Below, piece after piece: positions 841 through 24,145 of a stretch of DNA of 24,469 bases. Below the pieces are notes generated by a model. That model was not told the origin of the DNA, ran no database searches, and saw only the letters and a list, made by a program, of their open reading frames with translations. The position numbers were made by a program, and so were the translations under genes. How positions within the stretch are numbered: position 1 is the first letter of the stretch; each line of letters opens with the position of its first letter. The DNA is taken from NCBI RefSeq assembly GCF_006345805.1, contig NW_021836359.1, positions 1 through 24,469 on the forward strand. Reading direction: 5' to 3'. The DNA is from Octopus sinensis (Eukaryota).

Positions 841-1258
841 TGTTGTGAAAAATTTTGTATGTGAAGTCGTGTGTTGAAACATTGTTGTATTTCGGAAAAT
901 TTATTGGCTAAACTGGCAAAATGACCATTCCGAAATATAACAATAATAATAGCATTAACAATAGAAATAATAATAATAATAAGAATGGTAAAAATAAAAA
1001 TAATAAAAATAATAGTAATAATGATGATAACAATAATAATAACAATATTTATATAAATAGTGATAATAACAATACCAATAATATAGGTAGTATAGATAAA
1101 AGTATGGCAGGTGGGAATGATGGTGAGGATGGATTAATAACTAGTAACCCTAATTTGAATAACAACGTGGTTACTCATAATGAAAGTTATACTAATACTA
1201 ATAATAATTTAAATAACAGTAATCCTTAAATAATTCTAGAACTGAATACTATCCCCCC

Positions 1259-1684: not shown

Positions 1685-2254
1685 AAATTGTGAGTATTCC
1701 TATATTTTTCAAATTTTAACTTTTTATTATAATAATAATAAGAAATATACTATGCTAGCTTTCAATTTAACTTTCATAGATGACTAAGAAAACTTCACTG
1801 TAAACTTGAAATTGGAATTTTTTCTAAATCTAATCTAGTTTTAAAATGAATAAGGCGTTCCCCCAGTTATAAAATACTATGCCTACTCATAATAATAAGT
1901 GATAGGTTTTTTTCCCTACTCTCTGTAAAAGGGATTAATGACCATTTGACATTGACCTAGTTTCTCTCACCAAATAGCAGTAATTGGCATTTTGTTAGTG
2001 GCAACTACTGTCTTCAACTTGAATTCCTTTTATGTTATTCTGAAACCTCCTTTACCCCATTCCTACAACTAAAAAATCTTTATTACTTCTAACCTTATAG
2101 CAGTTAGATACAGCCATAGCTTGGTCAGTCAGTGGTTGGACTTCACTACCTCATACATTCTTAAAATTTAAATCTACATCTTTGTCTGTATATCTACCTT
2201 CTCTATAATGTTGCTACTTGATTTGAAAGCTTTTATATTAATGGAAAATCTATT

Positions 2255-2347
2255 TAATTGGCTGATGAGCACTCAGCATCTTAAATCTGTTGTAATACTT
2301 GCAACTTTTAATAAAATGATGTAGTGCGAAACAATTGTACCAAATTA
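2255..2347 (+). ncRNA. Type I hammerhead ribozyme in the PLE1 pseudo-LTR, family B, intact core
   Basis: Stem I taattgg/ccaaatta; CTGATGA 2262-2268; stem II gcact (2269-2273)/agtgc (2323-2327) enclosing a ~49 nt structured insert; GAAA 2328-2331; palindromic stem III acaattgt; GUA cleavage triplet 2337-2339. Confidence 0.88.
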
Positions 2348-2526
2348 CCGGAGTCATTCTTGTTGCTTATTTTGATTATAATCACCCCGCAAATTTTTAT
2401 GGATAACGCCATACAAAATTCTGCTGCATCTAAATTAAGTACCATATTCATTCGAATCTAAATTTTTGCTGAACTTATAATTCCATATATTGTATATGCT
2501 TTCCGGTACTTAACTTCTCAACAAGA

Positions 2527-4264
2527 ATGAAAAAGGTAAACATAGAGTTTTCCCCAAAGGATATCCCCTTACATAGTAAGGACGAATACATATGACTGTT
2601 GATCCACAGAACCAATGAATTTATCCGAAGAATTAGATGGATTATTTACCATTACGATACCAAACAGAAAAAAGCCCCTCAACTAACACACCTGGATAAT
2701 CGCTACAAAAAGATTTTTAGAAGTAGGAAGAGCCCACCTCCGAATCCATTGCTTGAAAGCTTTGAAAAAGATCTACTGAACTTTATCGCAAATATAAAAT
2801 TCAAGGAACATCCACTGAGATACAATCCACACCTTAAATATCTAAAGGATTTCATTAAATCTGTTCAACATAAGCAGGACATCCTAGTCCCAGCCAACAA
2901 AACTGGAAACCTTTACAGAATGGATTATGCGACTTACAGCAAACTCATTAGAAAGGAACTAAACTTAAGGTATAAAGTAACAACCAAGAAAAACTTGAGA
3001 GAGATCAATTTAGAAATCAAAAAATTTATGGTGAATTACGATCTGACCGATAGAACGGAGCCTCTTAAACCATGTGAATCCAGGATTAATCTTGAGGCCC
3101 ATAAGAAAAATTTCTCAGAAAACCTCTCGGTAAGACTCATATGTCCAACCAAGTCGGACATTGGCCGACTTAGCAAATCTATTTTGGACAATATTCTACC
3201 CCGTATAATTCCTAATCTCCCCTTGAGTCTATGGATTAATACAGATGAAGTGATAGATTGGTTTAAATCTCTAGATAACACTAATAGAATTTCTTTTATC
3301 CAATTTGATATTAACAATTACTATTCTAGTATATCCCCCATTCTACTAAATAAATCGTTTATTTTTGCTATGAATCGCTCTCTCATATCTAGGGAGGAAG
3401 TTGACATCATCCTATTAGCTAGAAAAACTATCATCGAATTTGAAGGTAAATTATGGACTAGGGCAGATACCCCTAATAATTTTGATATACCTATGGGCTC
3501 CATTGACTCAACGGAGATAACGAATCTGGTGGGAGCATACATATTAAAATGCATAAACAGAGATATTCCTGAGTTACAAGGTGGTCTATATAGAGATGAT
3601 TCTTTGTTCGTTGTACCTAGCAATAGTAAATCAAGTATTGAGAGAAAAAAAAAGAAAATTAAATTTTTTTAAAGATTTTAACCTAGGCATTTTAAAGATT
3701 TTAACCTAGGCGCAGGAGTGGCTGTGTGGTAAGTAGCTTGCTAACCAACCACATGGTTCCGGGTTCAGTCCCACTGCGTGGTACCTTGGGCAAGTGTCTT
3801 CTGCTATAGCCCCGGGCCGACCAATGCCTTGTGAGTGGATTTGGTAGATGGAAACTGAAAGAAGCCCGTCGTATATATGCGTATGTATGTTTGTGTGTCT
3901 GTGTCTGTCCCCCTAGCATTGTTTGACAACCGATGCTGGTGTGTTTACGTCCCCGTCACTTAGCGGTTCGGCAAAAGAGACCGATAGAATAAGTACTGGG
4001 CTTACAAAAGAATAAGTCCCGGGGTCGAGTTGCTCGATTAAAGGCGGTGCTCCAGCATGGCCGCAGTCAAATGACTGAAACAAGTAACAGAGTAAAAAGA
4101 GTAAAGAGGCATTACTTATGAACCTAACACTTAGATAGTTAATTTCCTAGACGTTACCTTGGACCTAAATTCAAAGTTACATTACCCATTTAGAAAGGAG
4201 GGCGAGGTCACTAGATATGTAAGTAAGTCATCTAATCACCCCCCGAATATACTAAAATCATTAG
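2527..4264 (+). pseudogene. PLE reverse transcriptase, decayed and SINE-interrupted
   Basis: MKKVNIEFSPKDIP...; in-frame TGA at 2593; motifs ANKTGN, VRLICPTKSDIG, IQFDINNYYSSI, FDIPMGSIDSTEITNLVG, GLYRDD. Homopolymer frameshift at ~3670. Resumes after the SINE as [19 protein letters not shown]...[16 protein letters not shown] (4108-4263). Confidence 0.9.
3708..4106 (+). mobile_element. tRNA-derived SINE, full length (probable Nin/Deu-type central domain, LINE-derived tail)
   Basis: A box tggctgtgtgg, B box ggttcagtccc, central ccttgtgagtggatttggtagatggaaactgaaagaagcccgtcg, tail ccagcatggccgcagtcaaatgactgaaac plus (agtaaa) repeats. TSD aggcatt at 3685-3691 and 4107-4113. Second copy at 23707-24094. 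Confidence 0.9.
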
Positions 4265-4287
4265 TTATATCAATATTATTATTATTA

Positions 4288-5245
4288 TAATGATATGAGA
4301 GGTGAGTGAGATTGGACGGTAATTCACGGCAAGCGATTTGTTTCCTTTTTTGAAAACTGGGACAACAGACTGGGATAGAAGGTCTTCTGGTATATATCCA
4401 GCATCCAGTGAGTTCCGCCACGGATTGGCTAGAGGGGGTGCAAGTTGGTGTTGACACATCTTCAAGACACAAGCAGGGAACCTATCGGGACCTACTGCTG
4501 AATTATGCTTCATTTCCTTTATTGCTTCTATGACATCAGGGGCGCCAAAGGTTATGTCCGATAAGGTGTATTGGGGAGTAACATTACTGATACAACCCAG
4601 ATCAGCCATATCAGGATTGCTGAAAACAGAGCAGTATTGTTTCTGCAGCATCTCTCCCATAGTTTTGGCATTGTCTTGAAGAGTACCATTTTCATCATTC
4701 AAAGGGCCAACAGTAGAGCCAGTGACTTTGCGTTTCTGTTTTGCAACTGAAAAGAACACTTTGGGATAAAGTTTGATCTTCTCAATGGCCCAGGCCTCTT
4801 CAGCTCTTCTCTGACTATTGATGATAGACATCATGTCGTTTTGGAGGTTATGTTTTTTAATCTCTAGTGATGTGATGGAAGTCAGGTTGGTGTGTTGCTG
4901 TTGACAGTATTTCAGCTTGTTGATTTTTTTGTTAATTCTTTTAATTTTCCCGATGAATGTTTTTCTATTTCTAGGGATTCTGCACTTAGATTTGTTTACA
5001 GATCTTAATGGGGTGTGTTTTGCACATATGTTTGTAATGGTGTCTACATTTGACTGCCAGGACTTTTTGATGTTAGTGGGTGTGTATGTGTGCGTGAAGG
5101 ACCAATTGACATGTGCAAGATCATTACTGATCGCTTCCCAGTTTGCTTTGTGGAAATCCATAGTGTCAAATGGATGGACAGGAGGGATGATGTTTGTTTT
5201 GCATTTTGGCCGGTGAAATCTCAGATCACAGAGAACCATGTCATG

Positions 5246-5246
<1 letters not shown>
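4288..5246 (-). mobile_element. CR1-like LINE ORF2 internal fragment (end of APE domain to start of RT)
   Basis: ORF reads HDMVLCDL...DFHKANWEAI...IKLYPKVFFS...VGPLNDENG...SAVGPDRFPACVLK...VVPVFKKGNKSLAVNYRPISLTSH. The N-terminal YIYI run and C-terminal IIII run are microsatellite, not protein. Confidence 0.88.

Positions 5247-5310
<64 letters not shown>
5247..5310. repeat. (TA)n microsatellite
   Basis: Read directly from the sequence. Confidence 0.95.
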
Positions 5311-5386
5311 TCATATAAGAATTTTTTTGCGTAATAAGATAAAAAAACCAAGGCTGTATAGATATTCGAGCATTTATAGATAGAAG

Positions 5387-5438
5387 GTCTTACAGCTGTT
5401 TCTAGGATATTAATTAATAATATCCCTTCATCGAAGAC
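5387..5438 (-). ncRNA. Minimal type I hammerhead motif at the PLE2 3' end, family C (variant core UCGAUGA)
   Basis: Minus strand reads gtct TCGATGA ag ggatatta ttaat taatatcc ta GAA acagctgt A agac. Stem I gtct/agac, stem II ggatatta/taatatcc, palindromic stem III, GUA triplet. Confidence 0.72.
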
Positions 5439-6469: not shown

Positions 6470-6870
6470 ATTGGGGAAATGTACTGTATGGTCATTCTGG
6501 CATTTGGATTTGTGACAGAATTTAAATGTGTGATAAAAGCGGTAGTTGCATGTGCTTAGTGCCTCGTTATGTTTATTAAGCAGTGTTGGAGAGTTGAGTC
6601 TAGTATGGACCATGATAGAGTATAGGGTATATTTGCATTTTTGAGATGATGTATGTGGTTGGCGAGTGTTGTAGATTTACTATGTTTATCGTATCTAAAA
6701 GAGTGGAGATGAGTGGCATATCATTGCTTAAAATTTTTTGTTGATCCTATGTATATGGCTGTAGAGTTGTGTAATCGGTTGAGGACCGTGCATTTGTAGA
6801 TTACATTATATCTTCTGCAATGGGTTTGTAGCGGTCAGGTGGTTCCAAGACGGCAATTACAATTAGGTGA
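6470..6870 (-). pseudogene. PLE GIY-YIG endonuclease domain, decayed
   Basis: My translation of the minus strand: SPNCNCRLGTT*PLQTHCRRYNVIYKCTVLNRLHNSTAIYIGSTKNFKQ*YATHLHSFRYDKHSKSTTLANHIHHLKNANIPYTLSWSIL. Homologous to 1259-1684, with two in-frame TGA codons. The 3' boundary is approximate. Confidence 0.85.
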
Positions 6871-6948
6871 CTTTTGAGGACCGTGTTCGGTAACTGAGGA
6901 GGTAGTATCATCAGAAGAGAGGTTATAGAAGGGGGTAAAAATTTCTAT

Positions 6949-6955
6949 ATTATTA

Positions 6956-7047
<92 letters not shown>

Positions 7048-7058
7048 ATTATTATTAA
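6949..7058. repeat. (ATT)n microsatellite within the PLE2 RT-EN linker
   Basis: Read directly; it is (AAT)n, i.e. poly-Asn coding potential, on the element strand. Confidence 0.9.
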
Positions 7059-7199
7059 CGTTATCATTACTATCACCGCCACTACTACTATTGTTACTGT
7101 TACTTCTGCTATTTGTCGGGGCATTAGAGATTATGGTGGTATTCCGGGCAGTGTTAGTAGAATGGGTTGGGTTGTGGTTGTGATCAAATGTAAGGATAT

Positions 7200-8478
7200 C
7201 TATGCTAGATATGTATGTGTGTTGATTATTTGTATTAATAGAGTTGTAGTTATGTGAGCTTTGATAGTAAAGAGAGAGAGCTTTTGCTTATTCGAGGCTG
7301 CTACAATAGATTCAAAGTTAGGTGAGTTTGAATAAGATAGTTTCAGGGTGGAGCTATTAAAGATAGAATGATATTTATGTTGTCGAGGGAAGTTAGAGTC
7401 TAGTATTCTAAAGAAGGATTTAGCTAAGTTCTTAACGTTAAGTGAGAATGGTGGTGTGTACCATAAAATAGAGCAATAGCCACTTTTTTTAGGGGGTCTG
7501 GGAATAGAGCTATCTAAATTGTTAGATAAATGAGTGTTATCTAACTTTTTGTGTAGGGTGTGTGGCAAGCGAGGCCTGTTATTGTTAGCTGTTTTATTTG
7601 TTTTAGTATTTGACCTGTTGTTAAATGAATGTGTGTGGGGTCTACGTTGTCTGGGTGCAATAGCTTCCATGGTCTCATCGACTGTGTGTGTTTGGTTGCG
7701 CTTATGATGGTTGTTGCGTGTTTGAGATGTGATTTGAGATATGTATTGATTGAGCCTGGTTTTCTGGATGTATTCTATTTGTTGGCAGAAGCCGTTAGCA
7801 GCGACTGCTTGATTACAATATGGTGCGTGATTATTGAAGATTTCTTCAGTGGAAGAGATGTCAGATATGCGGGTTGAGATTCCTTTGATTATATTATTAA
7901 AAGTGGATTTGTGGTGATTGGAATGGATGTTAAGGTATTTAAAGTACTGATTAGGTTTGTGGTAAGGGGAGTATTGGGATGTTGATAAGTTTAGGGTTGC
8001 GTTCATAAAATTAGCAGTTTTGTGAGCGTTTTCGAATGTGATAGATAGGTTCAGGTTAGAAAAGAATTTATGTAGGTCTTTTCTGGTTCTTTCTAAGGAT
8101 GATTTATTTATGCTTTTAGTAATTAATAAAGCGTCGTCCCTATATAGGCCTCTCTTGATATTAGGGAAGTGCCTGTGGAGCTGGTGTAGTATATAAAGTC
8201 CAACTAAGTCATTGACCTGAGCTGAATCCGAGGATCCCATGGTTATGTCGAATAGGTTGCTACGGTTGATGCTATGGTTATTGGTCCGGCACCATAGTTT
8301 GCTATCAAAAGGAATAAGGGTATTGCGGGCATTAAGTATAATGTTAATTTCAAGTGGGTTTAGGTTAGTAGAGAAGAGCTTGATTAAGTAATTTAGGAGA
8401 AATAAAAGATTAATAGTTGTTTATATCAAATTGTAAAAATGAATATGCTTTTTTGTTATTTATATGATTTAACCATGC
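7200..8478 (-). pseudogene. PLE reverse transcriptase, 5'-truncated and decayed
   Basis: YSFLQFDINNY*SFIS near 8400-8450; ORF 7200-8240 has MGSSDSAQVNDLVGLY, GLYRDDALL, ANFMNATLNL, YLNIHSNH, ILWYTPPFSLNV, HKYHSIFNSSTLKLSYS. Confidence 0.9.
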
Positions 8479-8489
8479 AATCAATCAAT

Positions 8490-8527
<38 letters not shown>

Positions 8528-8529
<2 letters not shown>

Positions 8530-8672
8530 TCATCATCATCATCATCATTTAGCGTCCGTTCTCCATGCTAGCATGGGTTGGACGGTTCAACTGGGGTCTG
8601 TGAAGCTGGAAGGCTTCATCAGGCCCAGTCAGATCTGGCAGTGTTTCTACGGCTGGATGCCCTTCCTAACGC
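8528..8672 (-). mobile_element. 5'-truncated SINE (Meta-domain-like) with (ATG)n tail
   Basis: Minus strand gcgttaggaagggcatccagccgtagaaa...gcatggagaacggacgctaaa(tga)n. The GGAAGGGCATCCAGCCGTA motif resembles the MetaSINE central domain, recognised from memory. Confidence 0.7.
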
Positions 8673-8728
8673 ATAATATATAATATATAATATATAATCA
8701 AAATAAGCAACAAGGATATCCAGAGGTA

Positions 8729-8817
8729 ATGCAGTACGATCGTTTCATGCGACTCCATTTAATTGAACAATGCAAATATTACATCAATTTATAATGTAGA
8801 GCAATCTTCTGTTGCAT
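8729..8817 (-). ncRNA. Type I hammerhead motif, family D (degenerate core CAGAAGA)
   Basis: Minus strand reads atgca a CAGAAGA t tgc...gca t GAA acgatcgt A c tgcat. Stem I atgca/tgcat, long stem II insert, palindromic stem III, GUA triplet. Confidence 0.62.
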
Positions 8818-10009
8818 AAAAATATAGAATTTAGTTAAATTCGAAGTATTCAATTGTATAGTTTTCTTATCCAAAATCACAAAGAGGATAAGTAGATAGA
8901 CAAAGAACATGTTTTATAACATCCCAGAGATTTTTCAAAGGAAGATACTGCTTATCATTGATTATATTTGTTATTCAGATTTACTGGGCGCGGGGGGGGG
9001 GGTTAGTTTTAATTTATAGACTGGTTTATCAAGTCTAATAGAAACTAGAATCTATCCTTTATGGATAGGGTAAAAAGACAGTTTAAGTGGCAGACTCATA
9101 AATCAAGATTTCTTTGAAGTAAAAACCATTTGGTTCAGTAACAATATACTTCAGCTAAGTTTGCTGGCTAAAGCTGATAGGGTAGGGAGAGTAAAACATA
9201 TAGCATTAACCATTTGACAACTATAAAAGCAGTGTTATTTATATATTTATATATACATAGAGTTGTTTTTAGAGTTGTTTAAAAAGAAACAATAAGAAGT
9301 ATATTTCAGAATATTTTCAGTATTATCAGAAGGATGGGGAATATAGAAATAATTCCATATTTATATATTTCTATACTAACTTAATATATATTTATAGTTA
9401 ATTATTAAATAGTAATTTTTGTTATTAATAAAGGAAAGTTAAGTTAAAAGAATATGTTAAAAATTTATATATTATATGTTAATAATTTTATTTAGAGCAT
9501 ATTTCTTATATTATAAAATAAACAGTGTATTATACCAGTATAGTTTTATATAAGTTGAGTATGAAATTTATAGAGATATATTATAAATAAATAAAATGAT
9601 ATAGTGAGTAAATAGGTAAGAAACTACCCGCTCCTATTCTCTCATCAGACCTCACATTAGCCCACTGGACACCATCTTTGTACAGAAACTCAAAAATGAT
9701 TATAAGGATGGAGACCCTGATGTGAGTGACAGATGTTCATCTGGCCCCTCTGATCGACAAAGGAACACACCCGAAACGAAAACCAAAATCGAGAGACCTG
9801 TTAAGGAAGAAGACACCAGCACTGATGGCCCTACCACAACCAATATCAAAAATGCGAAAGAACCAATAAAGGGTTAGAAAATAAAGATAAAGAAGAAAAG
9901 GGATGACGATAGAAGTAAAACCGAAGCAAAAAACAAAAGAGAGCCCCAAAGTAAAACACAAAAGCCAGACAGTCAACATGCAAAGCTACAAACAGTTAGG
10001 AAGTATACA

Positions 10010-10871
10010 CAAGTGTTTAAATTCTGCCTGCGTGGTGATTGCTAGAATGGACATGATGGTGCAAACTGCTGCTTCCTGCATCCAAAACCATAAAACATGC
10101 AGACCAAAAGCAAAAGTGTCTCTCTAAAACACAGAGGAAGACCCCAAAGAGGAAAAAGTGCATCACCTGCATCAAAGCTAAAATATGCCGATGTAGTGTG
10201 CACTACCTCTAAAAACCAACCCTACCCAGAAGCTGTCACAAGGGTTGCAGCTGAGTAAGAATCTTTTTATGCATGGCTCAAAAGATTGTGCAACAATTAA
10301 CCTGGTTTCATCAATTTCAGAGTTGGAGCCATCTGCTCCAAGATGCAAGACCGCCACAACCAATGGATCCAGGGTGGCCACCACTGGCATCAGTACAGAG
10401 GTCACACCAGTATACTTCGTAAATGTAAGAGGACTGTTACAACTCAGTAGCAGAACTAAAATTACCTTCCTGAGAGACCTAGTGACCTGCAATCAAGCCT
10501 TATGCATAGCACTCACTGAAACACACTTTCGCAGATGCAGAAATACACATACCGATAACGTTGTATTGCGAAGCGAGAGAAAAGACAGGGGCCATGGTGA
10601 AGTTATAATGTACATCAATGAAGATCTCACATCTCAGATCCTTTTGTCACTCTCAAATTCAGTGTGTGACACACTAATTGTACATATAATACAATTCGAC
10701 ATAGTTATATGTACTACATATCGCCTGCCAGATGCCCCAAATCAAACAGGCCTATTCGAAGACTGTTTTGCAAGACCTCTTCTAAGAGGTATTAACCAAA
10801 CAATAAGAGCACATCAGTGTACTTCTAATGGGAGACTTCTACATGCCCAATGTGAAATGGCTGGAAGGTAA
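10010..10871 (+). mobile_element. CR1-like LINE 5' fragment: ORF1 CCCH zinc-finger remnant plus ORF2 APE endonuclease, decayed
   Basis: QVFKFCLRGDC*NGHDGANCCFLHPK at 10010-10090; YFVNVRGLL...LCIALTETH...RSERKDRGHGEVIMYI...ICTTYRLPD; another frame gives VLLMGDFYMPNVKW. ORF1 probably extends upstream to ~9620. Confidence 0.82.
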
Positions 10872-11312
10872 CAAAATGGAAACAAAAACAGGTCAGTGAG
10901 AACAAAACAGTAAAAACAAACGGTGAGGGCTGTTAAGCCAAGACGATGTGAAGTGGTGAGCGCTAGAGAAACGAGCTTTGAGAAGAGACAGATAAAAGCA
11001 CATCATTTCATTAGGAAGGAAGTGGAAGAAAGATGGATGGCCGTTAGTCACGTGTGAGCGACGAGAGAGTGAAGGGGAGAGGAGAAGAAAAGGGAAAGGC
11101 CATATGACTTGCACTATCACACAAAACACTACATGGCAGCTTTCAAAGAATCTTTGGTGTTATGGGCGCGTTCATAATATATATATAGAGAGATGGAAGA
11201 ACATTGTAGAAAATGAAGGAGAGTATATTTTAGATTAAAAAGTAACTTTGCTTATCTTAATTTTAAAAATAAAAATATAAACAACCGCATTATGTATGGG
11301 ATGACCCAATAA

Positions 11313-11347
<35 letters not shown>

Positions 11348-11350
<3 letters not shown>

Positions 11351-11512
11351 GAATGGATGGCTGAAAATTTTCATGATTACACAATCCCTAATATTTTGCC
11401 TCCTAATTCCCAAGATCTCAATCCACTGGACTATTACATGTGGAGCGTTGTTGAGAGAGAGGTCAATGAACACGCTCATAACACCAAAGATTCTTTGAAA
11501 GCTGCCATGTAG
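11348..11512 (+). mobile_element. Tc1/mariner transposase C-terminal remnant
   Basis: Translates QEWMAENFHDYTIPNILPPNSQDLNPLDYYMWSVVEREVNEHAHNTKDSLKAAM*, matching the WPPxSPDLNPLD motif. Confidence 0.8.
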
Positions 11513-11740
11513 TGTGATTCTCCAACTCAGTGACATATTTGTCTGTTTTATATAGTCATGTCATAATTATTTAGGACATGTATCTATACTGGCCATCTAG
11601 AAAATAAGAAATAAAAAATAAGACAATAAGAAAATAAGAAATCTCCATTAGTGTCTGTTTAAAACGTGTTTTCGTCATGACCTCAGTGATACTAAAAATT
11701 TTATAAAGAATTTCTAATGCCTAGTTACTTCCTCCGTGTG

Positions 11741-11798
<58 letters not shown>

Positions 11799-11806
11799 TA
11801 TATATA

Positions 11807-12252
11807 TCCTTAAATCCTTAAAAATGTTCTAGCCAGAAGGCCGCGGCCAAGCTGGGGCACCACCACTGAATGAGCTCCACTAATATGTGAATCCCCCCCT
11901 CTGATACGTGGCACTTGATCAACAAGGGAGTTCGATGCTGCTGCCCGCATCTGCGTCTCCTGTCGTGAGGTAGGTTCATCTGGTACTCCCGACAAGAAGA
12001 GATCCAGTTTAGTTTTAAAGAAATCCACATCCACACCATGTAAGTTTCTCAGGGAGGACGTTAAAGAGCTGAGGTCCTCTGAAACCCAAGCTGTTGCAGT
12101 ATCTGGACCTGTATTTTGATGGTGATGTTGGAATCTTTGGCACCATGCAGTGGCGCCCCGTTCTGCGGTTGGGGTAATTTTGAATGCCAAAGTTTGGGAC
12201 AAGACCATCCAGGATTTTCCAGATGTATATCACCGCATATCACTCCCGCCTC

Positions 12253-12257
<5 letters not shown>
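11807..12257 (-). mobile_element. CR1-like LINE 3' end (RT C-terminus, 3' UTR, TTAAGGA tail)
   Basis: ERRRE*YAVIYIWKILDGLVPNFG...SLGFRGPQLFNVLP, then after a frameshift LRNLHGVDVDFFKTKLDLFLSGVPDEP...RAAASNSLVDQ. The 3' UTR has ggtggtgccccagcttggccgc and ends tttaaggatttaagga at (TA)n. Confidence 0.85.
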
Positions 12258-12346
<89 letters not shown>

Positions 12347-12348
<2 letters not shown>

Positions 12349-12673
12349 GTATAATGAAAATAAACGTCTGTGTGTCTGTCGATTTATAAGAAGAAAGGCT
12401 AGAGCATCTAAAAAGACCTAAAAGTGTGAAATTTTTCCAGGAAGACAGTGGAAGTGGTCTCGAGTCTCTAGGTGCCCCCTAATGGGATCCACGGGTAATT
12501 TCCAAAATGTTTCACATAGCACAGTACCCCTCACCCCACCAAAAATGACCGGTCTAAAGGAGATAACTAAATAAAAGATGAAACCCCAATAAATTGTTCA
12601 ATGCAATCTTAGTGAATGACTTCCAATATTCATAGTACAATTTTGTCAGCTTTTTCAACCCAGTCCACAACGG

Positions 12674-12674
<1 letters not shown>
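12347..12674 (+). repeat. Unclassified ~328 bp interspersed repeat (other copies 21148-21475 and partial 13771-13899)
   Basis: Near-identical sequence acgtataatgaaaataaacgtctgtgtgtctgtc...cccagtccacaacggt at three places, flanked by microsatellites. Confidence 0.85.
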
Positions 12675-12711
<37 letters not shown>

Positions 12712-12743
12712 ATATATAATAATATATATATATATATATATGT

Positions 12744-12769
<26 letters not shown>

Positions 12770-12776
<7 letters not shown>

Positions 12777-13300
12777 TGGAAGAACATTGTAGAAAATGAA
12801 GGAGAGTATATTTTAGATTAAAAAATAACTTTGCTTATCTTAATTTTTAAAAATAAAAATATAAACAACCGCATGATGTATGGGATGACCCAATACACAG
12901 ACACACACACACACAGAGGAATAGATGGCTAAAAATTTTCATGATTACACAATCCCTAATATTTGGCCTCCTTCCCAAGATCTCAATTCACTGGACTATT
13001 ACATGTGGAGCGTTGTTGAGAGAGAGGTCAATGAACACGCTCATAACACCAAAGATTCTTTGAAAGCTGCCATGTAGCGTGATTCTCCATCTCAGTGACA
13101 TATTTGTCTGTTTTATATGGTCATGTCATAATTATTTAGGACATGTATCTATACTGGCCATCTAGAAAATAAGAAATAAAAAATAAGACAATAAGAAAAT
13201 AAGAAATCTCCATTAGTGTCTGTTTAAAACGTGTTTTCGTCATGACCTCAGTGATACTAAAAAATTTATAAACAATTTCTAATGCCTAGTTACTTCCTCC

Positions 13301-13336
<36 letters not shown>

Positions 13337-13570
13337 TTAAATCCTTAAAAATGTTCTAGCCCGAAGGCCGCGGCTATGCTGGAGCACCACCACTGAATGA
13401 GCTCCACTAATATGTGAATCCCCCTCTGATACGTGGCACTTGATCAACAAGGGAGTTCGATGCTGCTGCGGTATCTGGACCTGTATTTTGATGGTGATGT
13501 TGGAAACTTTGGCACCATGCAGTGGCGCCCCGTTCTGCGGTTGGGGTAACTTTGAATGCCAAAGTTTGGG
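12770..13570 (+). repeat. Direct duplication of ~11189-12198 (Tc1 remnant plus LINE 3' end) with an internal 153 bp deletion
   Basis: agagatggaagaacattgtag...aaagtttggg matches the earlier copy with scattered substitutions; the segment equivalent to 11945-12097 is missing. Confidence 0.9.
12918..13077 (+). mobile_element. Tc1/mariner transposase remnant, duplicated copy
   Basis: Copy of 11348-11512 with a small deletion near the WPPxSPDLN motif. Confidence 0.75.
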
Positions 13571-13661: not shown

Positions 13662-13772
13662 ACCGGAGTAGTAAAGACATAAATGTGAAACAAGGTGGAA
13701 AAAAGAGTACTCAAATATCAGTGTTAGAGTAATACCAGTGGTAGAGTACTCAAATACCAGTGGTAGAGTAAT
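13662..13772 (-). repeat. 3' fragment of the HHR family G element, with short internal duplications
   Basis: Reverse complement of 23611-23680 (ttactctaccactggtatttgagtactc...tactccggt); taccagtggtagagta is repeated. Confidence 0.8.
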
Positions 13773-13963
13773 GACCGGTCTAAAGGAGATAACTAATTAA
13801 AAGTTGAAACCCCAATAAATTGTTCAATGCAATCTTAGTGAATGACTTCCAATATTCATAGTACAATTTTGGCAGCTTTTTCACCCAGTCCACAACGGTA
13901 TATATATATATATACCATCCAGGATTTTCCAGATGTATATCACCGCATATCTCTCCGCCTCCG

Positions 13964-14033
<70 letters not shown>

Positions 14034-14060
14034 TATATATATTTATTATTATATAGAAGG

Positions 14061-14110
14061 AGCTTCTACAGGACTAGTACTGTTTCATTCAGAGAAATCT
14101 TCAGGAAGCT
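14061..14110 (-). ncRNA. Type I hammerhead motif, family E copy 1
   Basis: Minus strand reads agcttc CTGAAGA tttctctgaat GAA acag tactagtc ctgt A gaagct. Perfect 6 bp stem I, short stem II, GUA triplet. Confidence 0.8.
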
Positions 14111-14850
14111 ATTAACAAGAATTGTATTAGCATTTATACATTTAGGCAGGTTTAAAGGAGTGGTGGTGGGGGACTTTTTTGGGGTAGGCATAGCGCAAAA
14201 TATCATACTTGGGGGAGTGGTCAAGGAGTCAGTGGTAAGTTAGATGAAAGAATAGATAATAAAAAAAATAAATAAAAAAAAAAAAAAAAAAAAAAAAAAT
14301 AAAAAATAAAAAATAAAAAAATAAAAAATAAAAAAAAAAAAAATAAAAATAAAAATAATAAAAAAAATAAAAAAAATAAATGTGTGCACATACATACATA
14401 AAAACATATACATACACACACATACGTACACATGTGTGCCTATACATACCTACACATACACACATACATACATAATATATTATATATATATATATATATT
14501 ATATAATATATATATATAACACAATCAAATACAGGCCCATTCCCTAATTTTAATTTTATTATCTTCATTTATTACTTTTGTTATCTTTGATCGCTAGGGC
14601 TAAGGATCCTGGCGATGGCAGCATGTCCAATTGTCTGTCTACTAGAAGGCAAGTACTCGTTCCCGCACGCACACTCATTAGCACGTACATACACCCATTC
14701 GTACACTCATACACATACACGTACGCACGCGTATATTCATACATACAAACATCTACATACGTTCACATATATACACATACGTACTCGTACCTACAGATTC
14801 ATGTCTACACTTTAGGAGGCTAGTCTTATATATACACCAATAAATATACA

Positions 14851-14899
<49 letters not shown>

Positions 14900-14963
14900 A
14901 CACACACCACACACACATATATTACTCCTACATACAGATACATACCCATATATATATACATAT

Positions 14964-15036
<73 letters not shown>

Positions 15037-15261
15037 CATACACCACACACACATATATATACACACACATACATACACATATATAACATACACAAACATA
15101 ATACACACATATATATATATACATATATACACACATACATACACACACCTACATACATATACACACACACATACATACGTCAACATACATACATACATCC
15201 ATACATCCATACTTACATGCATTTATACGCATACATACACCCCATATATATATATATAAAA

Positions 15262-15335
<74 letters not shown>

Positions 15336-15416
15336 GGTCCGGGCTGATCCGGGTTAACCACAGTAAGTAAGGTACTCAATACATCGCAGAGTAAAATTAA
15401 TTTATTATATAGAAGG

Positions 15417-15465
15417 AGCTTCCAGGACTAGTACTGTTTCATTCAAGAGAAATCTTCAGGAAGCT
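15417..15465 (-). ncRNA. Type I hammerhead motif, family E copy 2 (UA of the cleavage triplet deleted)
   Basis: Same as 14061-14110 but ctgga replaces ctgtaga. Confidence 0.65.
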
Positions 15466-15780
15466 ATTTAACAAGAATTTATTAGCATTTATACATTTAG
15501 GCAGGTTTAAAGGAGTGGTGGTGGGGGACTTTTTTGGGGTAGGCATAGCGCAAAATATCATACTTGGGGGAGTGGTCACGGAGTCAGTGGTAAGTTAGAT
15601 GAAAGAATAGATAAATAAAAAAATAAAAAATAAAAAAAAAAATAAAAAATAAAAAATAAAAAATAAAATGTGTGCACATACATACATAAACACATATACT
15701 ACACACACACATACGTACACATGTGTGCCTTATACATACCTACACATACACACATACACATACATATTATATACATACAT

Positions 15781-15846
<66 letters not shown>

Positions 15847-16328
15847 ATCCAATACAGCCCATTCCCTAATTTTAATTTATATCTTCATTTATTACTTTTG
15901 TTATCTTTGATCGCTAGAGCTAAGGATCCTGGCGATGGCAGCATGTCCAAATTGTCTGTCTACTAGGAGGCAAGTACTCGTTCCCGCACGCACACTCATT
16001 AGCACGTACATACACCCATTCGTACACTCATACACATACACGTACGCAACGCGTTATATTCATACATACAACACATTTCATACGGTCACGTATATACACA
16101 TACGTACTCGTACTACAGATTCATGTCTACACTTTAGGAGGCTAGTCTATATATATACACCAATAAATATACATATATATATATTATATATATATATACA
16201 TATATATATATACACATATACACATACACACACACACACACATATATATACTCCTACATACAGATACATACCTATATATATAATATATATATATACCCAC
16301 ACATACATGTACACATATATATATATAC

Positions 16329-16381
<53 letters not shown>

Positions 16382-16604
16382 CATACATACATACACACAC
16401 ACCCATATATATACACACACATACATACACTATATATACATACACAAACATATATACACACATATATATATATACATATATACACACATACATACACACA
16501 CCTACATACATATACACACAAACACATACATACGTAAAACATACATACATACATCCATACATCCATACTTACATGCACTTATACGCATACACCACACCCC
16601 CATC

Positions 16605-16635
<31 letters not shown>

Positions 16636-17216
16636 ATATTATATATATATATATATATACACACTCAGACATACATATACAAATATACGCCCACACATAC
16701 ATACATACATACACGTATACGCATACACGCACTACACATATACATGCGTACCCATACACGTGCCCACACGCACATGCATCCATATGTATACACACACACA
16801 CATATATACACGTGTGCAAGCATACATACATACTCATACACGCACACATACTTACATATACATATATGCACACACTTACACACATATATACATACACATA
16901 TACATGCATACATACATATATGCATACATACACATACACGCACATAACATATACACATGCGTACCCATACACGTGCACGCACGCACGCGCATCCATATAT
17001 ATACACACGCACGCATATATATACACGTGTGCAAGCATACATACATACTCATACACGCGCACATATTTACATATACATATATGCACACACTTCCACACAT
17101 ATATACATACACATATCATGCATACATACATTATGCATACATACACACACGCGCACTCATATATACATATATATATACACACACATACACATATATACAT
17201 ATACATATATATGTAT

Positions 17217-17249
<33 letters not shown>

Positions 17250-17361
17250 TATATATACACACACTACACATACACACACATATACATACATATACACATA
17301 CATATATATACACATATACACATACACATACATGCACACATACACACACATACAATACACC

Positions 17362-17403
<42 letters not shown>

Positions 17404-18152
17404 TAGGTGTGTACATATGTGTATATATATATATATATATATGTATGTAGGTGTATGTGTATGTGTGTGTATGTGTGCATGTATGTGTATGTGTATATGT
17501 GTATATATATGTATGTGTATATGTATGTATATGTGTGTGTATGTGTATTGTATATATATATATATAATATATTATATATATATATATACATATATATATG
17601 TATATGTATATTGTGTATGTGTGTGTATATATATATGTATTATGAGTGCGCGTGTGTGTATGTATGCATATATGTATGTATGCATGTATATGTGTATGTA
17701 TATATGTGTGGAAGTGTGTGCATATATGTATATGTAAATATGTGCGCGTGTATGAGTATGTATGTATGCTTGCCACACGTGTATATATATGCGTGCGTGT
17801 GTATATATATGGATGCGCGTGCGTGCGTGGCACACGTGTATGGGTACGCATGTGTATATGTGTATGTGCGTGTATGTGTATGTATGCATATATGTAGTAT
17901 GCATGTATATGTGTATGTATATATGTGTGTAAGTGTGTGCATATATGTATATGTAAGTATGTGTGCGTGTGTATGAGTATGTATGTATGCTTGCACACGT
18001 GTATATAGGTGTGGGTGTGTATACATATGGATGCATGTGCGTGTGGGCACGGTATGGGTACGCATGTATATGTGTATGTGCGTGTATGCGTATACGTGTA
18101 TGTATGTATGTATGTGTGGGCGTATATTTGTATATGTATGTCTGAGTGTGTG

Positions 18153-18200
<48 letters not shown>

Positions 18201-18439
18201 ATATATATATATATAGATGGGGGTGTGTGTATGCGTATAAGTGCATGTAAGTATGGATGTATGGATGTATGTATGTATGTTTACGTATGTATGTGTTTGT
18301 GTGTATATGTATGTAGGTGTGTGTATGTATGTGTGTATATATGTATATATATATATATGTGTGTATATATGTTTGTGTATGTATATATATGTGTATGTAT
18401 GTGTGTGTATATATATGGGTGTGTGTGTATGTATGTATG

Positions 18440-18476
<37 letters not shown>

Positions 18477-18604
18477 TATATGTGTATGTATATATATATA
18501 TATATGTGTACATGTATGTGTGGGTATATATATATATATATATAGGTATGTATCTGTATGTAGGAGTATATATATGTGTGTGTGTGTGTGTATGTGTATA
18601 TGTG

Positions 18605-18651
<47 letters not shown>

Positions 18652-19356
18652 TTATTGGTGTATATATATAGACTAGCCTCCTAAAGTGTAGACATGAATC
18701 TGTAGGTACGAGTACGTATGTGTATATACGTGAACGTATGAAGATGTTTGTATGTATGAATGTAACGCGTGCGTACGTGTATGTGTATGAGTGTACGAAT
18801 GGGTGTATGTACGTGCTAATGAGTGTGCGTGGGGGAACGAGTACTTGCCTTCTAGTAGACAGACAATTTGGACATGCTGCCATCGCAGGATCCTTAGCTC
18901 TAGCGATCAAAGATAACAAAAAGTAATAAATGAAGATAATAAAATTAAAATTAGGGAATGGGCCTGTATTGGATTGTGTATATATATATATATAATATAT
19001 ATATTATATATAATATATATATAATATATGTGTGTATATATGTATATATATATATGTATGTGTATGTGTGTATGTGTAGTATGTATAGGCACAAATGGTA
19101 CGTATGTGTGTGTGTATGTATATGTGTTTATGTATGTATGTGCACCACATTTTTTTTTTTATTTTTTAGTTTTTATTTTTTATTTTTTATTTTTTATTTT
19201 TTATTTATCTATTCTTTCATCTAACTTACCACTGACTCCTTGACCACTCCCCCAAGTATGATATTTTGCGCTATGCCTACCCCAAAAAAAGTCCCCCACC
19301 ACCACTCTTTAAACCTGCCTCTAAATGTATAAATGCTAATACAATTCTTGTTAAAT

Positions 19357-19406
19357 AGCTTCCTGAAGATTTCTCTTGAATGAACAGTACTAGTCCTGTA
19401 GAAGCT
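19357..19406 (+). ncRNA. Type I hammerhead motif, family E copy 3 (GAA instead of GAAA)
   Basis: agcttc CTGAAGA tttctcttgaat GA acagtactagtcctgt A gaagct. Confidence 0.68.
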
Positions 19407-19444
19407 CCTTCTATATAATAATATATATATATATATTATATATA

Positions 19445-19942
19445 TACACACTCACACATACATATACCAAATATACGCCCACACATACATACATACAAGT
19501 ATACGCATACACGCACATACACATATACATGCGTACCCATAACGTGCACCCACGCACATGCATCCATATATATACACACACACACACATATATACACGTG
19601 TGCAAGCATACATACATACTCATACACGCACACATACTTACATATACATATATGCACACACTTACACACATATATACATACACATATACATGCATACATA
19701 CATATATGCATACATACACATACACGCACATACACATATACACATGCGTACCCATACACGTGCACGCACGCACGCGCATCCATATAATACACACACACAC
19801 ATATAATACACGTGTGCAAGCATACATTAATACTCATACACGCGCACATACTTAATATACATATATGACACACTTACACACATATATACATACACATATA
19901 CATGCATACATACATATATGACATACACACACACGCGCACTC

Positions 19943-19982
<40 letters not shown>

Positions 19983-20720
19983 CACATATATATATATACA
20001 TATATATACACAAACATATATATTCACATATACACATACACATACATGCACCCTACACACACATACACATACACATACATATATATATATACATATATAT
20101 ACACATATATACACATATACACATACATATATACACACATACATACATATACATACACACACACATACATATACACGGATACACATACCATACATATATA
20201 TAGTATATATATACAACAACACACACTATACACATGCATAACTTATATCTCTACATACTCACATATAAACATATATATATATACACACACACATATATAT
20301 ACATGTACACACACAATACACATATACATAAACATATACACATACACACCATACATATATATATATATATACACATACATATACTATATACATAATTATA
20401 TATATATACACATATATATATACATATACCCCCACATATTATACATATAATACACACATATACACACAACCACACACACATACATATACACATATACATG
20501 TATACATACGCAATAATGATAAACATATCTACACATTACACACACACAGACAGATGCATATACATACATATATATATATATAAACTACATATCTATATAA
20601 ATACATACATAATACAATATACACACACTATATACATACATATACATAACATATATATATACATATATATATATATACATAATATATAATATATACATAT
20701 ATATATATACATATATACAT
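19445..20720 (+). repeat. Forward-orientation, progressively degenerate copy of the 16660-17350 CA/TA complex repeat
   Basis: Shares anchors aaatatacgcccacacatac, atgcgtacccatacacgtgc and acacgtgtgcaagcatac, then decays into irregular CA/TA. Confidence 0.75.
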
Positions 20721-20724
20721 ATAT

Positions 20725-21074
20725 TTTTTTTTATTTTTTATTTATTTTTATTTTTTTTTTTTTTTTTTTTATTTGTTATTTTTTATTTTTTTTTTATCTA
20801 TTCTTTCATCTAATACCACTGACTCCTTGACCACTCCCCCAAGTATGATATTTTGCGCTATGCCTACCCCGAAAACAAGTCCCCCACCACCACTCCTTTA
20901 AAACTGCCTAAATGTATAAATGCTAATACAATTCTTGTTAAATAGTTTCCTGAAGATTTCTCTTGAATGAAACAGTACTAGTCCTGTAGAACTCCTTCTA
21001 TATAATAAATTAATTTACTCTGCTATGTATTGAGTACCTTACTTATGTGGTTAACCCCGGATCAACCCGGGACC

Positions 21075-21077
<3 letters not shown>
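20725..21077 (+). repeat. Family E 3' end, reverse complement of ~15333-15665
   Basis: T-rich tract, then ctattctttcatc...ccactcccccaagtatg...cccgggacctac, then (TA)n. Confidence 0.88.
20944..20993 (+). ncRNA. Type I hammerhead motif, family E copy 4
   Basis: agtttc CTGAAGA tttctcttgaat GAA acagtactagtcctgt A gaact; core intact. Confidence 0.75.
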
Positions 21078-21147
<70 letters not shown>

Positions 21148-21472
21148 ACGTATAATGAAAATAAACGTCTGTGTGTCTGTCGATTTATAAGAAGAAAGGC
21201 TAGAGCATTTAAAAAGACCTAAAAGTGTGAAATTTTTCCAGGAAGACAGTGGATGTGGTCTCGAGTCTCTAAGTGCCCCTAATGGGTTCCACGGGCGATT
21301 TCCAGAATGTTTCACATAGCACAGTACCCCTCACCCCACCAAAAATGACCGGTATAAAGGAGATAACTAATTAAAAGTTGAAACACCAATAAATTGTTTC
21401 AATGCAATCTTAGTGAATGACTTCCAATATTCATAGTACAATTTTGGCAGCTTTTCAAACCCAGTCCACAAC

Positions 21473-21475
<3 letters not shown>
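21148..21475 (+). repeat. Copy of the unclassified ~328 bp repeat at 12347-12674
   Basis: Direct sequence match with several substitutions. Confidence 0.85.
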
Positions 21476-21571
<96 letters not shown>

Positions 21572-21795
21572 ATAATTAATCAATATAGGGTGGCAAAAAC
21601 TTTTGTAGGAATTTTCTTGCCACCAGCGGCCTAGTGGGAAAAAATTAAATAGTCATAGACCATTTTAAGTTCAACATCAACAATCAAGGAACGGCCATAA
21701 TAGGCCATTCACCCACTAGAAATAACAGCCAAGCTTCAACCGCAATAAAGTCAATTCCGTAAACAGGAGAAAATTTAAAAAACATTTACCCTGTA

Positions 21796-21900
21796 ATTTC
21801 TTATACGATGCACCGTTTCGTCTGCTGTTAATGGTAAACTAACCTGATTAATTAAATCAAGCCAATCTTCCATAGGCCCTCAGATTCTTCAGTAAGAAAT
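21796..21900 (-). ncRNA. Type I hammerhead ribozyme, family F copy 1
   Basis: Minus strand reads atttctta CTGAAGA a tctg...caga c GAA acggtgcatcgt A taagaaat. Perfect 8 bp stem I, extended stem II, GUA triplet. Confidence 0.85.
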
Positions 21901-22281
21901 AGCCACAAGTCAGAACAGATATTTTCACGAGGCATTTCCGACCGTGCCAAGTTAATATCTGACCTAAAATTTTCAAATCATCGCACTCGCGCCAAATTTA
22001 TCGGCAGCAAATAAATATAAGCCGTCGATTCCATTACGGAATTACCAGAAAATTCATAATTAATCAATATAGGTGGCAAAAAAATTTGTAGAATTTTCTT
22101 GCCACCAGCGGCCTAGTGGGAAAAAATTAAATAGTCATAGACCATTTTAAAGTTCAACATCAACAATCAAGGAACGGCCATAATAGGCCATTCACCCACT
22201 AGAAATAACAGCCAAAGCTTCAACCGCAAATAAAAGTCAATTCCGTAAACAGGAGAAAATTTAAAAAACATTTACCCTGTA

Positions 22282-22388
22282 ATTTCTTATACGATGCACC
22301 GTTTCGTCTGCTGTTTAATGGTAAACTAACCTGATTAAATTAAATCAAGCCAATCTTCCATAGGCCCTCAGATTCTTCAGTAAGAAAT
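22282..22388 (-). ncRNA. Type I hammerhead ribozyme, family F copy 2
   Basis: As copy 1, 486 bp downstream. Confidence 0.85.
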
Positions 22389-22658
22389 AGCCACAAGTCG
22401 GAACAGATATTTTCACGAGGCATTTCCGACCCTGCCAAGTAAATATAAGCCGTCGCAAGAAAATTCTACAAAATTTTTTTGCCACCCTATATTGATTAAT
22501 TATGAATTTTCTGGTTAATTCCGTAATGGAATCGACGGCTTATATTTATTTGCTGCCGATAAATTTGGCGCGAGTGCGATGATTTGAAAATTTTAGGTCA
22601 GATATTAACTTGCAGGGTCGGAAATGCCTCGTGAAAATATCTGTTCCGACTTGTGGCT

Positions 22659-22763
22659 ATTTCTTACTGAAGAATCTGAGGGCCTATGGAAGATTGGCTG
22701 ATTTAATTTAATCAGGTTAGTTTACCATTAACAGCAGACGAAACGGTGCATCGTATAAGAAAT
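22659..22763 (+). ncRNA. Type I hammerhead ribozyme, family F copy 3
   Basis: atttcttaCTGAAGAatctg...cagacGAAAcggtgcatcGTAtaagaaat read directly. Confidence 0.85.
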
Positions 22764-23147
22764 TACAGGGTAAATGTTTTTTAAATTTTCTCCTGTTTAC
22801 GGAATTGACTTTTATTTGCGGTTGAAGCTTTGGCTGTTATTTCTAGTGGGTGAATGGCCTATTATGGCCGTTCCTTGATTGTTGATGTTGAACTTTAAAA
22901 TGGTCTATGACTATTTAATTTTTTCCCACTAGGCCGCTGGTGGCAAGAAAATTCTACAAAATTTTTTTGCCACCCTATATTGATTAATTATGAATTTTCT
23001 GGTTAATTCCGTAATGGAATCGACGGCTTATATTTATTTGCTGCCGATAAATTTGGCGCGAGTGCGATGATTTGAAAATTTTAGGTCAGATATTAACTTG
23101 GCACGGTCGGAAATGCCTCGTGAAAATATCTGTTCCGACTTGTGGCT

Positions 23148-23252
23148 ATTTCTACTGAAGAATCTGAGGGCCTATGGAAGATTGGCTTGATTTAATTTAA
23201 TCAGGTTAGTTTACCATTAAAAGCAGACGAAACGGTGCATCGTATAAGAAAT
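23148..23252 (+). ncRNA. Type I hammerhead ribozyme, family F copy 4
   Basis: As copy 3, 489 bp downstream, with one T missing in stem I. Confidence 0.82.
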
Positions 23253-23373
23253 TACAGGGTTAAATGTTATTTTAATTTTTCCTGTTTACGGAATGACTTT
23301 TATTTGCTTGGGTTGAAGATTTGGCTGTTATTTCTAGTGGGTGAATGGCCTATTATGGCCGTTCCTTGATTGT

Positions 23374-23439
<66 letters not shown>

Positions 23440-23484
23440 ATATATATTACTTTATTTTAAGCAGTGCAGAAAATTCAACAGAAT

Positions 23485-23521
23485 CTGTTACTCTGAGTTC
23501 TCGTTGCCGTTCATCAGACAG
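23485..23521 (-). ncRNA. Minimal hammerhead motif, family G left copy (GAA instead of GAAA)
   Basis: Minus strand reads ctgt CTGATGA acggcaacga GA actcagagt A acag. Confidence 0.65.
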
Positions 23522-23536
23522 TTTTGCTAGCAAAAA

Positions 23537-23574
23537 CTGTCTGATGAACGGCAACGAGAAACTCAGAGTAAAAG
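23537..23574 (+). ncRNA. Minimal hammerhead motif, family G right copy
   Basis: ctgt CTGATGA acggcaacga GAA actcagagt A aaag. Core intact, one stem I mismatch (aaag for acag). Confidence 0.7.
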
Positions 23575-23706
23575 ATTTTGTTGAATTTTCTGCTGCTTAA
23601 AATAAAGCATATTACTCTACCACTGGTATTTGAGTACTCTTTTTTCCACCTTGTTTCACATTTATGTGTTTACTCCGGTATATATATATATATATATATT
23701 ACCCTT

Positions 23707-24091
23707 TTACTTGTTTCAGTCATTTGACTGCGGCCATGCTGGAGCACCGCCTTTAATCGAGCAACTCGACCCCGGGACTTATTCTTTTGTAAGCCCAGTA
23801 CTTATTCTATCGGTCTCTTTTGCCGAACCGCTAAGTGACGGGGACGTAAACACACCAGCATCGGTTGTCAAACAATGCTAGGGGGACAGACACAGACACA
23901 CAACATACACGCACACACACATATATATATACATATATACGACGGGCTTCTTTCAGATTCCGTCTACCAAATCCACTCACAAGGCATTGGTCGGCCCGGG
24001 GCTATAGCAGAAGACACTTGCCCAAGGTGCCACGCAGTGGGACTGAACCCGAACCATGTGGTAAGCTACTTACCACACAGCCACTCCTGCG

Positions 24092-24094
<3 letters not shown>
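23707..24094 (-). mobile_element. tRNA-derived SINE, same family as 3708-4106
   Basis: Reverse complement matches 3708-4090, with a short deletion between the A and B boxes and a longer internal TA/TG tract. Confidence 0.9.

Positions 24095-24145
<51 letters not shown>

Follow-up and report, generated by a model that had tools for sequence, protein, structure and literature searches.

We analysed a window of 24,469 nucleotides from Octopus sinensis (assembly GCF_006345805.1, contig NW_021836359.1). Self-comparison showed that it holds four copies of a ~488-bp non-coding unit, 96-97% alike and present in two orientations. These four copies had been recognised in the initial annotation, which described them as a single tandem array with a spacing of 486-489 nt. 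They form instead two dimers on opposite strands: a minus-strand arm of ~1.8 units at 21572-22446 and a plus-strand arm of ~1.9 units at 22452-23377. The spacing holds within the arms, where the distance from cut site to cut site is 486 and 489 nt, and fails between them, where the two inner hammerhead cores lie on opposite strands, 287 bp apart and pointing away from each other. The arms, joined 5'-to-5' inside (TA)n, both read outward from the centre, and their outer ends also lie in (TA)n: the left tract (21475-21574, no strand assigned), in which the left arm ends directly, is the putative insertion target, and the right tract (23376-23447, no strand assigned) was located by a repeat scan. 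With this geometry each arm could release a single monomer, the two coming from opposite strands, instead of the three of a tetramer.

The two arms are unequal. The left arm, 5'-truncated, is ~104 nt longer at its 3' end, and this extension or tail (21572-21675, minus strand) is present in that arm only; the right arm, which has the short 3' end, is ~150 nt longer at its 5' end. As each arm has sequence absent from the other, neither is a copy of its partner (in the self-comparison, 21676-22446 aligns to 23377-22602). By sequence reading, the junction between them (22440-22455, minus strand) is a 16-nt piece that matches unit positions 82-97 in reverse complement; next come a skip of ~60 nt at a short common motif and the change of strand. 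Read at this level, the junction is a template-switch signature. The flanks of the inverted pair are not mirror images, and the locus has no terminal repeats besides the unit itself, the (TA)n context masking any target-site duplication. A partial tandem and an adjoining inverted 5'-truncated copy, both seen here, are the form of a PLE-type (Penelope-like element) insertion, and the microsatellite target, which for Hydra and Naiad is (TA)n, was present at both ends of the locus; published PLE insertions leave the same footprint and have a tail at one end (PMC8557442). Opposite-strand PLE hammerheads 100-700 bp apart have been described (PMC4209133), a range that includes the 287 bp found here. 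Tandem Repeats Finder did not report the ~488-bp unit. The sequence of the window is noisy, with many homopolymer indels between copies, and self-comparison revealed several inverted duplications in it. If the whole locus were transcribed, the RNA would form a hairpin of ~770 bp, a possible substrate for editing or small-RNA production. We do not claim RNA editing as a source of variation, as A>G changes are seen in DNA runs too.

The unit is non-coding: its longest stop-free stretch, in six frames of the doubled unit, was 42 aa, and with no ORF it has neither the reverse transcriptase (RT) nor the GIY-YIG endonuclease of an autonomous PLE. Its GC content is 36%. The predicted monomer measures 486-489 nt; in the right arm it comprises the 489 nt between the two predicted cut sites (22756-23244, plus strand), and its left-arm counterpart the 486 nt from 22289 to 21804 on the minus strand. 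Folding of the monomer, a check suggested in the initial annotation, gave a well-structured RNA: as circles the two monomers had predicted minimum free energies of -137 and -135 kcal/mol in a branched fold with ~60% of the bases paired, with z scores of -5.8 and -4.0 and 0 of 60 shuffles as stable in either case, which predicts a highly self-paired monomer circle. An additional 7-bp hairpin just 5' of the ribozyme, also pointed out in the initial annotation, is present at 22617-22650 (plus strand, pair probabilities 0.57-0.72) and in the other three copies, the outer left one (C1) with one G-U change. A 15-bp hairpin folds between the two 3' end positions (22939-22974, plus strand), and the 5' truncation of the right arm falls at the base of the first copy of this hairpin. 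No B box was found, and the ribozyme strand of the right arm (22452-23377) has five runs of 5-7 T, its complement none; Pol III multimers are therefore an unlikely source of transcripts, judging from these motifs, and our guess is read-through Pol II transcription.

Each unit contains a predicted type I hammerhead. The four CUGAAGA...GAAA...GUA cores start at 21892 (C1, outer) and 22380 (C2, inner) on the minus strand, and at 22667 (C3, inner) and 23155 (C4, outer) on the plus strand; the corresponding hammerheads span 21796-21900, 22282-22388, 22659-22763 and 23148-23252, with predicted cuts after 21804, 22290, 22755 and 23244, respectively. In C3 the core (22667-22673) is followed by stem-loop II (22674-22739), consisting of an A-C mismatch, 4 bp and a 58-nt internal hairpin, then by GAAA (22740-22743) and a near-palindromic stem III. 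The conserved core bases are present in all four copies, so that the description of the cores as intact stands in this respect; it does not extend to stem II, which an A-C mismatch closes in all four copies in place of the usual G-C pair and whose stem-loop is 66-68 nt long. Likewise, the stem I of 7-8 bp originally described measures 8 bp in three copies, and in C4 a missing T leaves 2+5 bp with a bulge. Canonical type I hammerheads have a G10.1-C11.1 pair, in the standard residue numbering, and a short loop II for the contact between loops I and II. Both features are absent from the four hammerheads of the unit copies.

The descriptor used to detect the ribozyme matched three of the four copies; the one missed was C4, with its 1-nt deletion in stem I. 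Among 5000 dinucleotide shuffles of the monomer, the hammerhead was matched in one, and a stem I of at least 7 bp in none, so chance does not account for the motif. A search of Rfam returned no ribozyme for the window or for this region, and no hammerhead match in the region at E values up to 10, which is explained by the length of stem-loop II; its miRNA-like matches were below the gathering scores and were rejected as low-complexity or palindrome noise. The predicted ribozyme thus stems from the descriptor and from the variation within the family (see below). These results suggest that hammerhead surveys by descriptor may undercount ribozymes with a long stem-loop II. Constraining the fold to the hammerhead cost 3.3 kcal/mol relative to the local minimum, and pair probabilities in stem III did not exceed 0.19; such values would suit the slow or dimeric cleavage that has been reported of PLE hammerheads (PMC4209133). 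Among predicted Xenopus retrozyme dimers, one of nine cleaved in vitro (bioRxiv 10.64898/2026.07.22.740005). From the predicted cut site to the short 3' end there are 133 nt. Only one strand of the unit contains CUGANGA, so there is no ribozyme in both polarities. A viroid-like ambisense circular RNA was rejected on this ground and also because no Rfam ribozyme family matched and because motif scans of viral and metagenome contigs gave 0 matches.

The unit was found in 20 of the 24 public sequence runs listed, which belong to 11 studies and five organisms, and the contigs of four of these runs (X1, X2, X13 and X18) were compared to one monomer. Contigs matching the monomer numbered 7103 and 2589 in the two large runs and 28 and 12 in the two small ones, counts that give no copy number. 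The head-to-tail joint reappeared in other samples, in contigs of three of the four runs compared (11, 7 and 1 contigs of X1, X2 and X13); in X18 the end-to-start joint was visible only as loose ends. The head-to-tail closure of the unit was seen in two organisms. The share of contigs continuing into unlike sequence was 0 in X1 and X2, where the loose ends, among those listed, were short variants of the unit itself, and 0.06 and 0.25 in the small runs. No fixed link of the unit to other sequence was found in the DNA runs; note that Logan contigs are short (62-259 nt in the pieces listed), so that a rare ORF junction could escape. Six runs are only guessed to be RNA and none is on record as such. 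One X13 contig spans the cut site and fits equally DNA, uncut RNA or a circle; the junction GUA/uaagaaau is uninformative about circles because it is identical to uncleaved genomic sequence in a tandem.

Thirty variable positions were listed for the family. At the foot of stem II, T replaces C in 70% (X1) and 58% (X2) of the summed depth, and the replacement is almost complete in X13 and X18. As T gives an A-U pair, A-U is the family majority at this position in all four runs compared. Two other common variants preserve pairing as G-U, and a compensatory change in stem II was suggested by separate loose ends on different contigs. The pairing-preserving variants weakly support the hammerhead fold. 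Conservation of the core was discarded as a proof of selection: 0 of the 30 variable positions fell in the 31 bases of the core, stem III and the 3' strand of stem I, where ~2 would be expected by chance, a difference that is not significant. Two X13 contigs end in (TA)n at 1 and 4 nt from the two end positions of the locus. The initial annotation had the array ends fall mid-unit; this recurrence makes them look unlike random breaks there and suggests, with one contig for each, that the family has two preferred 3' ends, resembling the two RT start sites of PLEs.

The window also contains two decayed Hydra-type PLEs. One is a partial tandem at 1223-3672 (plus strand) with a GIY-YIG fragment carrying CxCX5C, then a pLTR (pseudo-LTR) whose hammerhead at 2262 has a 59-nt stem-loop II and a G-C closing pair, and an RT frame starting at ATG 2527 with an early stop. 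Half of its frame aligns at 85% identity to an O. sinensis protein predicted to have ankyrin repeats, which suggests that a piece of the PLE lies inside that gene model. The other (6700-8830, minus strand) has an upstream hammerhead remnant at ~8810-8725 whose core is mutated and whose stem-loop II measures ~60 nt; the remnant is 75% like the hammerhead at 2262. Both decayed elements carry the RW, NKT and CxCX5C motifs, the last cysteine position being a stop in the second, and their full-length relatives, of ~700 aa with DKT and CxCX5C, were found on contigs of 2.4-2.8 kb; RW, NKT/DKT and CxCX5C are markers of the Hydra clade (PMC8557442). Pfam recognised only the GIY-YIG fragment among five neighbouring ORFs, and an Atlas search retrieved RT-like clusters with no clade assigned. 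Both local PLE hammerheads share with the ~488-bp unit a stem-loop II of ~60 nt, and no similarity was detected between the unit and the two PLE hammerhead regions (105 of 300 and 260 of 300 shuffles scored as high).

Two other hammerhead repeats are found in the window, both inverted. The repeat at 13989-21143, whose unit measures ~1.35 kb and abounds in CA/TA microsatellite, has cores at 14104 and 15459 on the minus strand and at 19363 and 20950 on the plus strand, and two 3' ends ~67 nt apart; its ribozyme is compact and Hydra-style, the base of stem II being a U-U mismatch. A tiny pair at 23448-23680, in (TA)n, has cores at 23517 (minus, lacking one A of GAAA) and 23541 (plus) and a ~70-nt tail on the right only; its stems I and III resemble those of Hydra-2_aMil in the published table (PMC8557442). 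Downstream of the ribozyme this mini element showed weak similarity to the 488-bp unit (1 of 300 shuffles, with 10 pairs compared). A ~450-bp repeat bounded by (TA)n, with no CUGANGA core, occurs at 12296-12744, 13770-13914 and 21097-21549, the last adjoining the left arm. A ~400-bp element, presumably an octopus SINE, is present in two copies 91% alike and in opposite orientation (3707-4095 and 23699-24095), one of which cuts off the PLE RT frame. Finally, by eye we noted LINE-like frames, with no significant Pfam match, and a ~750-bp direct duplication at 4265-5389 (minus), 10197-10871 (plus) and 11187-13469.

In every respect that could be tested the unit agrees with the animal non-LTR retrozymes (PMC7229834; bioRxiv 10.64898/2026.07.22.740005), with which it shares a non-coding unit of GC content below 50%, a type I hammerhead in each unit, at least two consecutive units, a well-folded predicted circle and coexistence with PLEs. 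Its 488 bp fall within the 51-972 bp of Li et al. (bioRxiv 10.64898/2026.07.22.740005) and above the 150-450 bp repeats of Cervera and de la Pena 2020 (PMC7229834). It differs from animal non-LTR retrozymes in its 66-nt stem-loop II and the lack of a G-C pair at the base of stem II, and cleavage and circles are here predictions; unlike the retrozymes of PMC7229834, where the word "inverted" occurs 0 times in the main text, it has an inverted arrangement. The retrozyme label of the initial annotation consequently suits the composition of the unit (non-coding, 36% GC, one hammerhead per unit, at least two units, joints elsewhere) and not the geometry and mechanism that came with it. No cephalopod appears among the genomes described in the available text of the two retrozyme papers, the available text of PMC13282606 mentions neither hammerhead nor ribozyme, and our search, whose coverage left most subscription journals outside, found no published report of a cephalopod retrozyme or of one linked to the Hydra clade.

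The Hydra-clade PLEs (Craig et al. 2021, PMC8557442), which include Hydra-1_Obim of Octopus bimaculoides, share with the unit the (TA)n target, a hammerhead near the 3' end, the frequent absence of G-C at the base of stem II and a palindromic stem III. In the published table 25 Hydra-family hammerheads, counted by eye after dropping one duplicate row, have at this base 14 U-U, 1 U-C, 3 G-U and 7 G-C; as 18 of 25 have no G-C, its absence is normal for the clade. An inverted 5'-truncated copy is also noted there for Penelope-13_HM. Compared with these PLEs, the unit has no ORF, a loop II of 58 nt against 3-10 nt in the published Hydra loops, and a one-sided tail of ~104 nt, the usual PLE tail being 30-40 bp. 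Two motifs of the unit had 0 matches in the supplement text of that paper. The Poseidon PLE of Anolis carolinensis, PAc (Frangieh et al. 2024, PMC11167929), has two RT start sites, a one-sided tail, an AT-rich target, both strands nicked and extended, and an uncut RNA template, i.e., the mechanism that we infer for the unit; its purified protein initiates within the RNA at two sites, which set the limits of the tail. PAc differs in being autonomous, in belonging to another clade and in its tail of 30-40 bp, so that the likeness to a non-coding passenger RNA is by analogy. The non-autonomous Chlamys elements such as MRC1 (PMC8557442) are likewise non-coding passengers with pLTRs and multicopy head-to-tail insertions; they differ in being green-algal, in generally having no canonical hammerheads and in sharing their 3' ends with autonomous families.

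We consider it probable (about 0.68) that the locus is an insertion of a non-autonomous Penelope-like retroelement whose non-coding unit of 488 bp carries a single type I hammerhead. Animal non-LTR retrozymes as a group appear to be non-autonomous PLEs, which is how Li et al. read them (bioRxiv 10.64898/2026.07.22.740005), and from the target site, the style of the ribozyme and the neighbourhood this one is probably mobilised by a Hydra-clade PLE. A multimeric RNA of at least ~1,030 nt, with both hammerheads uncut, would be bound in trans by the RT/GIY-YIG protein of a PLE, most likely of the Hydra clade, which would nick both strands of the (TA)n tract. Two cDNAs would be primed at two start sites ~104 nt apart, and the two 5'-truncated products would be joined end to end via microhomology, giving inverted partial dimers with a one-sided tail. 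Cleavage by the hammerhead would probably be slow and take place in a dimer formed through the near-palindromic stem III; monomers or circles of 486-489 nt may result.

The nature of the template bears on the main alternative, the retrozyme cycle, in which multimers self-cleave to ~487-nt monomers that circularise, and RT round one such circle gave both arms. It accounts for the two consecutive hammerheads of each arm and for the circular fold (z -5.8 and -4.0, with 0 of 60 shuffles as stable in each case), the family majority at the base of stem II is A-U in all four runs compared, circles have been shown for coral, mussel and axolotl retrozymes (the model was proposed in PMC7229834), and fixed start sites are possible on a circle as well. 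Successive passes round one circle would, however, be identical, and with the arms in register both inner units have G (22615 and 22432) and both outer units C (23104 and 21944), the remaining differences between units being private or homopolymer noise. The outer C is not among the variants of at least 5% listed in any of the four runs, the A-C mismatch is in all four window copies, and the model alone leaves the inversion unexplained. A marker common to both arms points to a template of at least a dimer and not one monomer circle; with a single site in noisy sequence we hold a template of at least dimer length to be moderately favoured over the monomer circle of the initial annotation, which was probably not the template here, and the cycle as a whole to be unlikely. 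The shared G/C marker is also expected from a fold-back or from a circle of two units. We give roughly even odds to the production of ~487-nt circles by the family, which is a judgement of ours rather than a result.

The unit could also be the pseudo-LTR, or 3' non-coding end, of a coding PLE, and the locus a doubly 5'-truncated inverted insertion of it. PLE insertions are mostly 5'-truncated and commonly inverted (PMC8557442), the distance of 133 nt between the cut site and the short 3' end is like that in Hydra pLTRs (PMC8557442), and short contigs could hide a rare ORF junction, the more so as 6% and 25% of the small-run contigs enter unlike sequence and a further 146 loose ends lie outside those listed. 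A truncated coding PLE would nevertheless give one pLTR per arm or leave endonuclease codons before the pLTR, whereas each arm has unit after unit and no remains of an ORF; furthermore, the unit closes head-to-tail in two organisms and the X1/X2 loose ends listed are short variants of it, which makes this origin quite unlikely. The unit and its tandem could also be real and the inversion an artefact, produced when a long read or the assembly folded back on itself, in keeping with the noisy sequence, its homopolymer indels and the several inverted duplications of the window, and with the mirrored G/C marker, which a fold-back would produce too. An artefact is highly improbable given flanks that are not mirrored, arms that each have sequence absent from the other, a junction with a templated 16-nt piece and a 60-nt skip, and two other hammerhead repeats in the same window that are inverted with unequal 3' ends, a form published for PLEs.

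A further reading, which we regard as doubtful, goes beyond the non-autonomous PLE insertion proposed above: Hydra-clade PLEs would move this octopus retrozyme from uncut multimers, on both strands and from two fixed starts, the circle being a side product, and the ~58-nt hairpin would replace loop II in an architecture common to the local coding PLEs. This hairpin is possibly the handle by which the PLE protein restrains the ribozyme until copying ends.

The family would extend retrozymes to cephalopods and tie one of them to the Hydra clade. The standard model for retrozyme copying is RT round a monomer circle, and the one PLE studied in vitro uses uncut RNA. Abundant inverted twin-armed insertions allow a genomic test of this matter: inner/outer markers shared by the two arms at many loci, together with two fixed ends, would favour multimer templates and priming of the PLE type.
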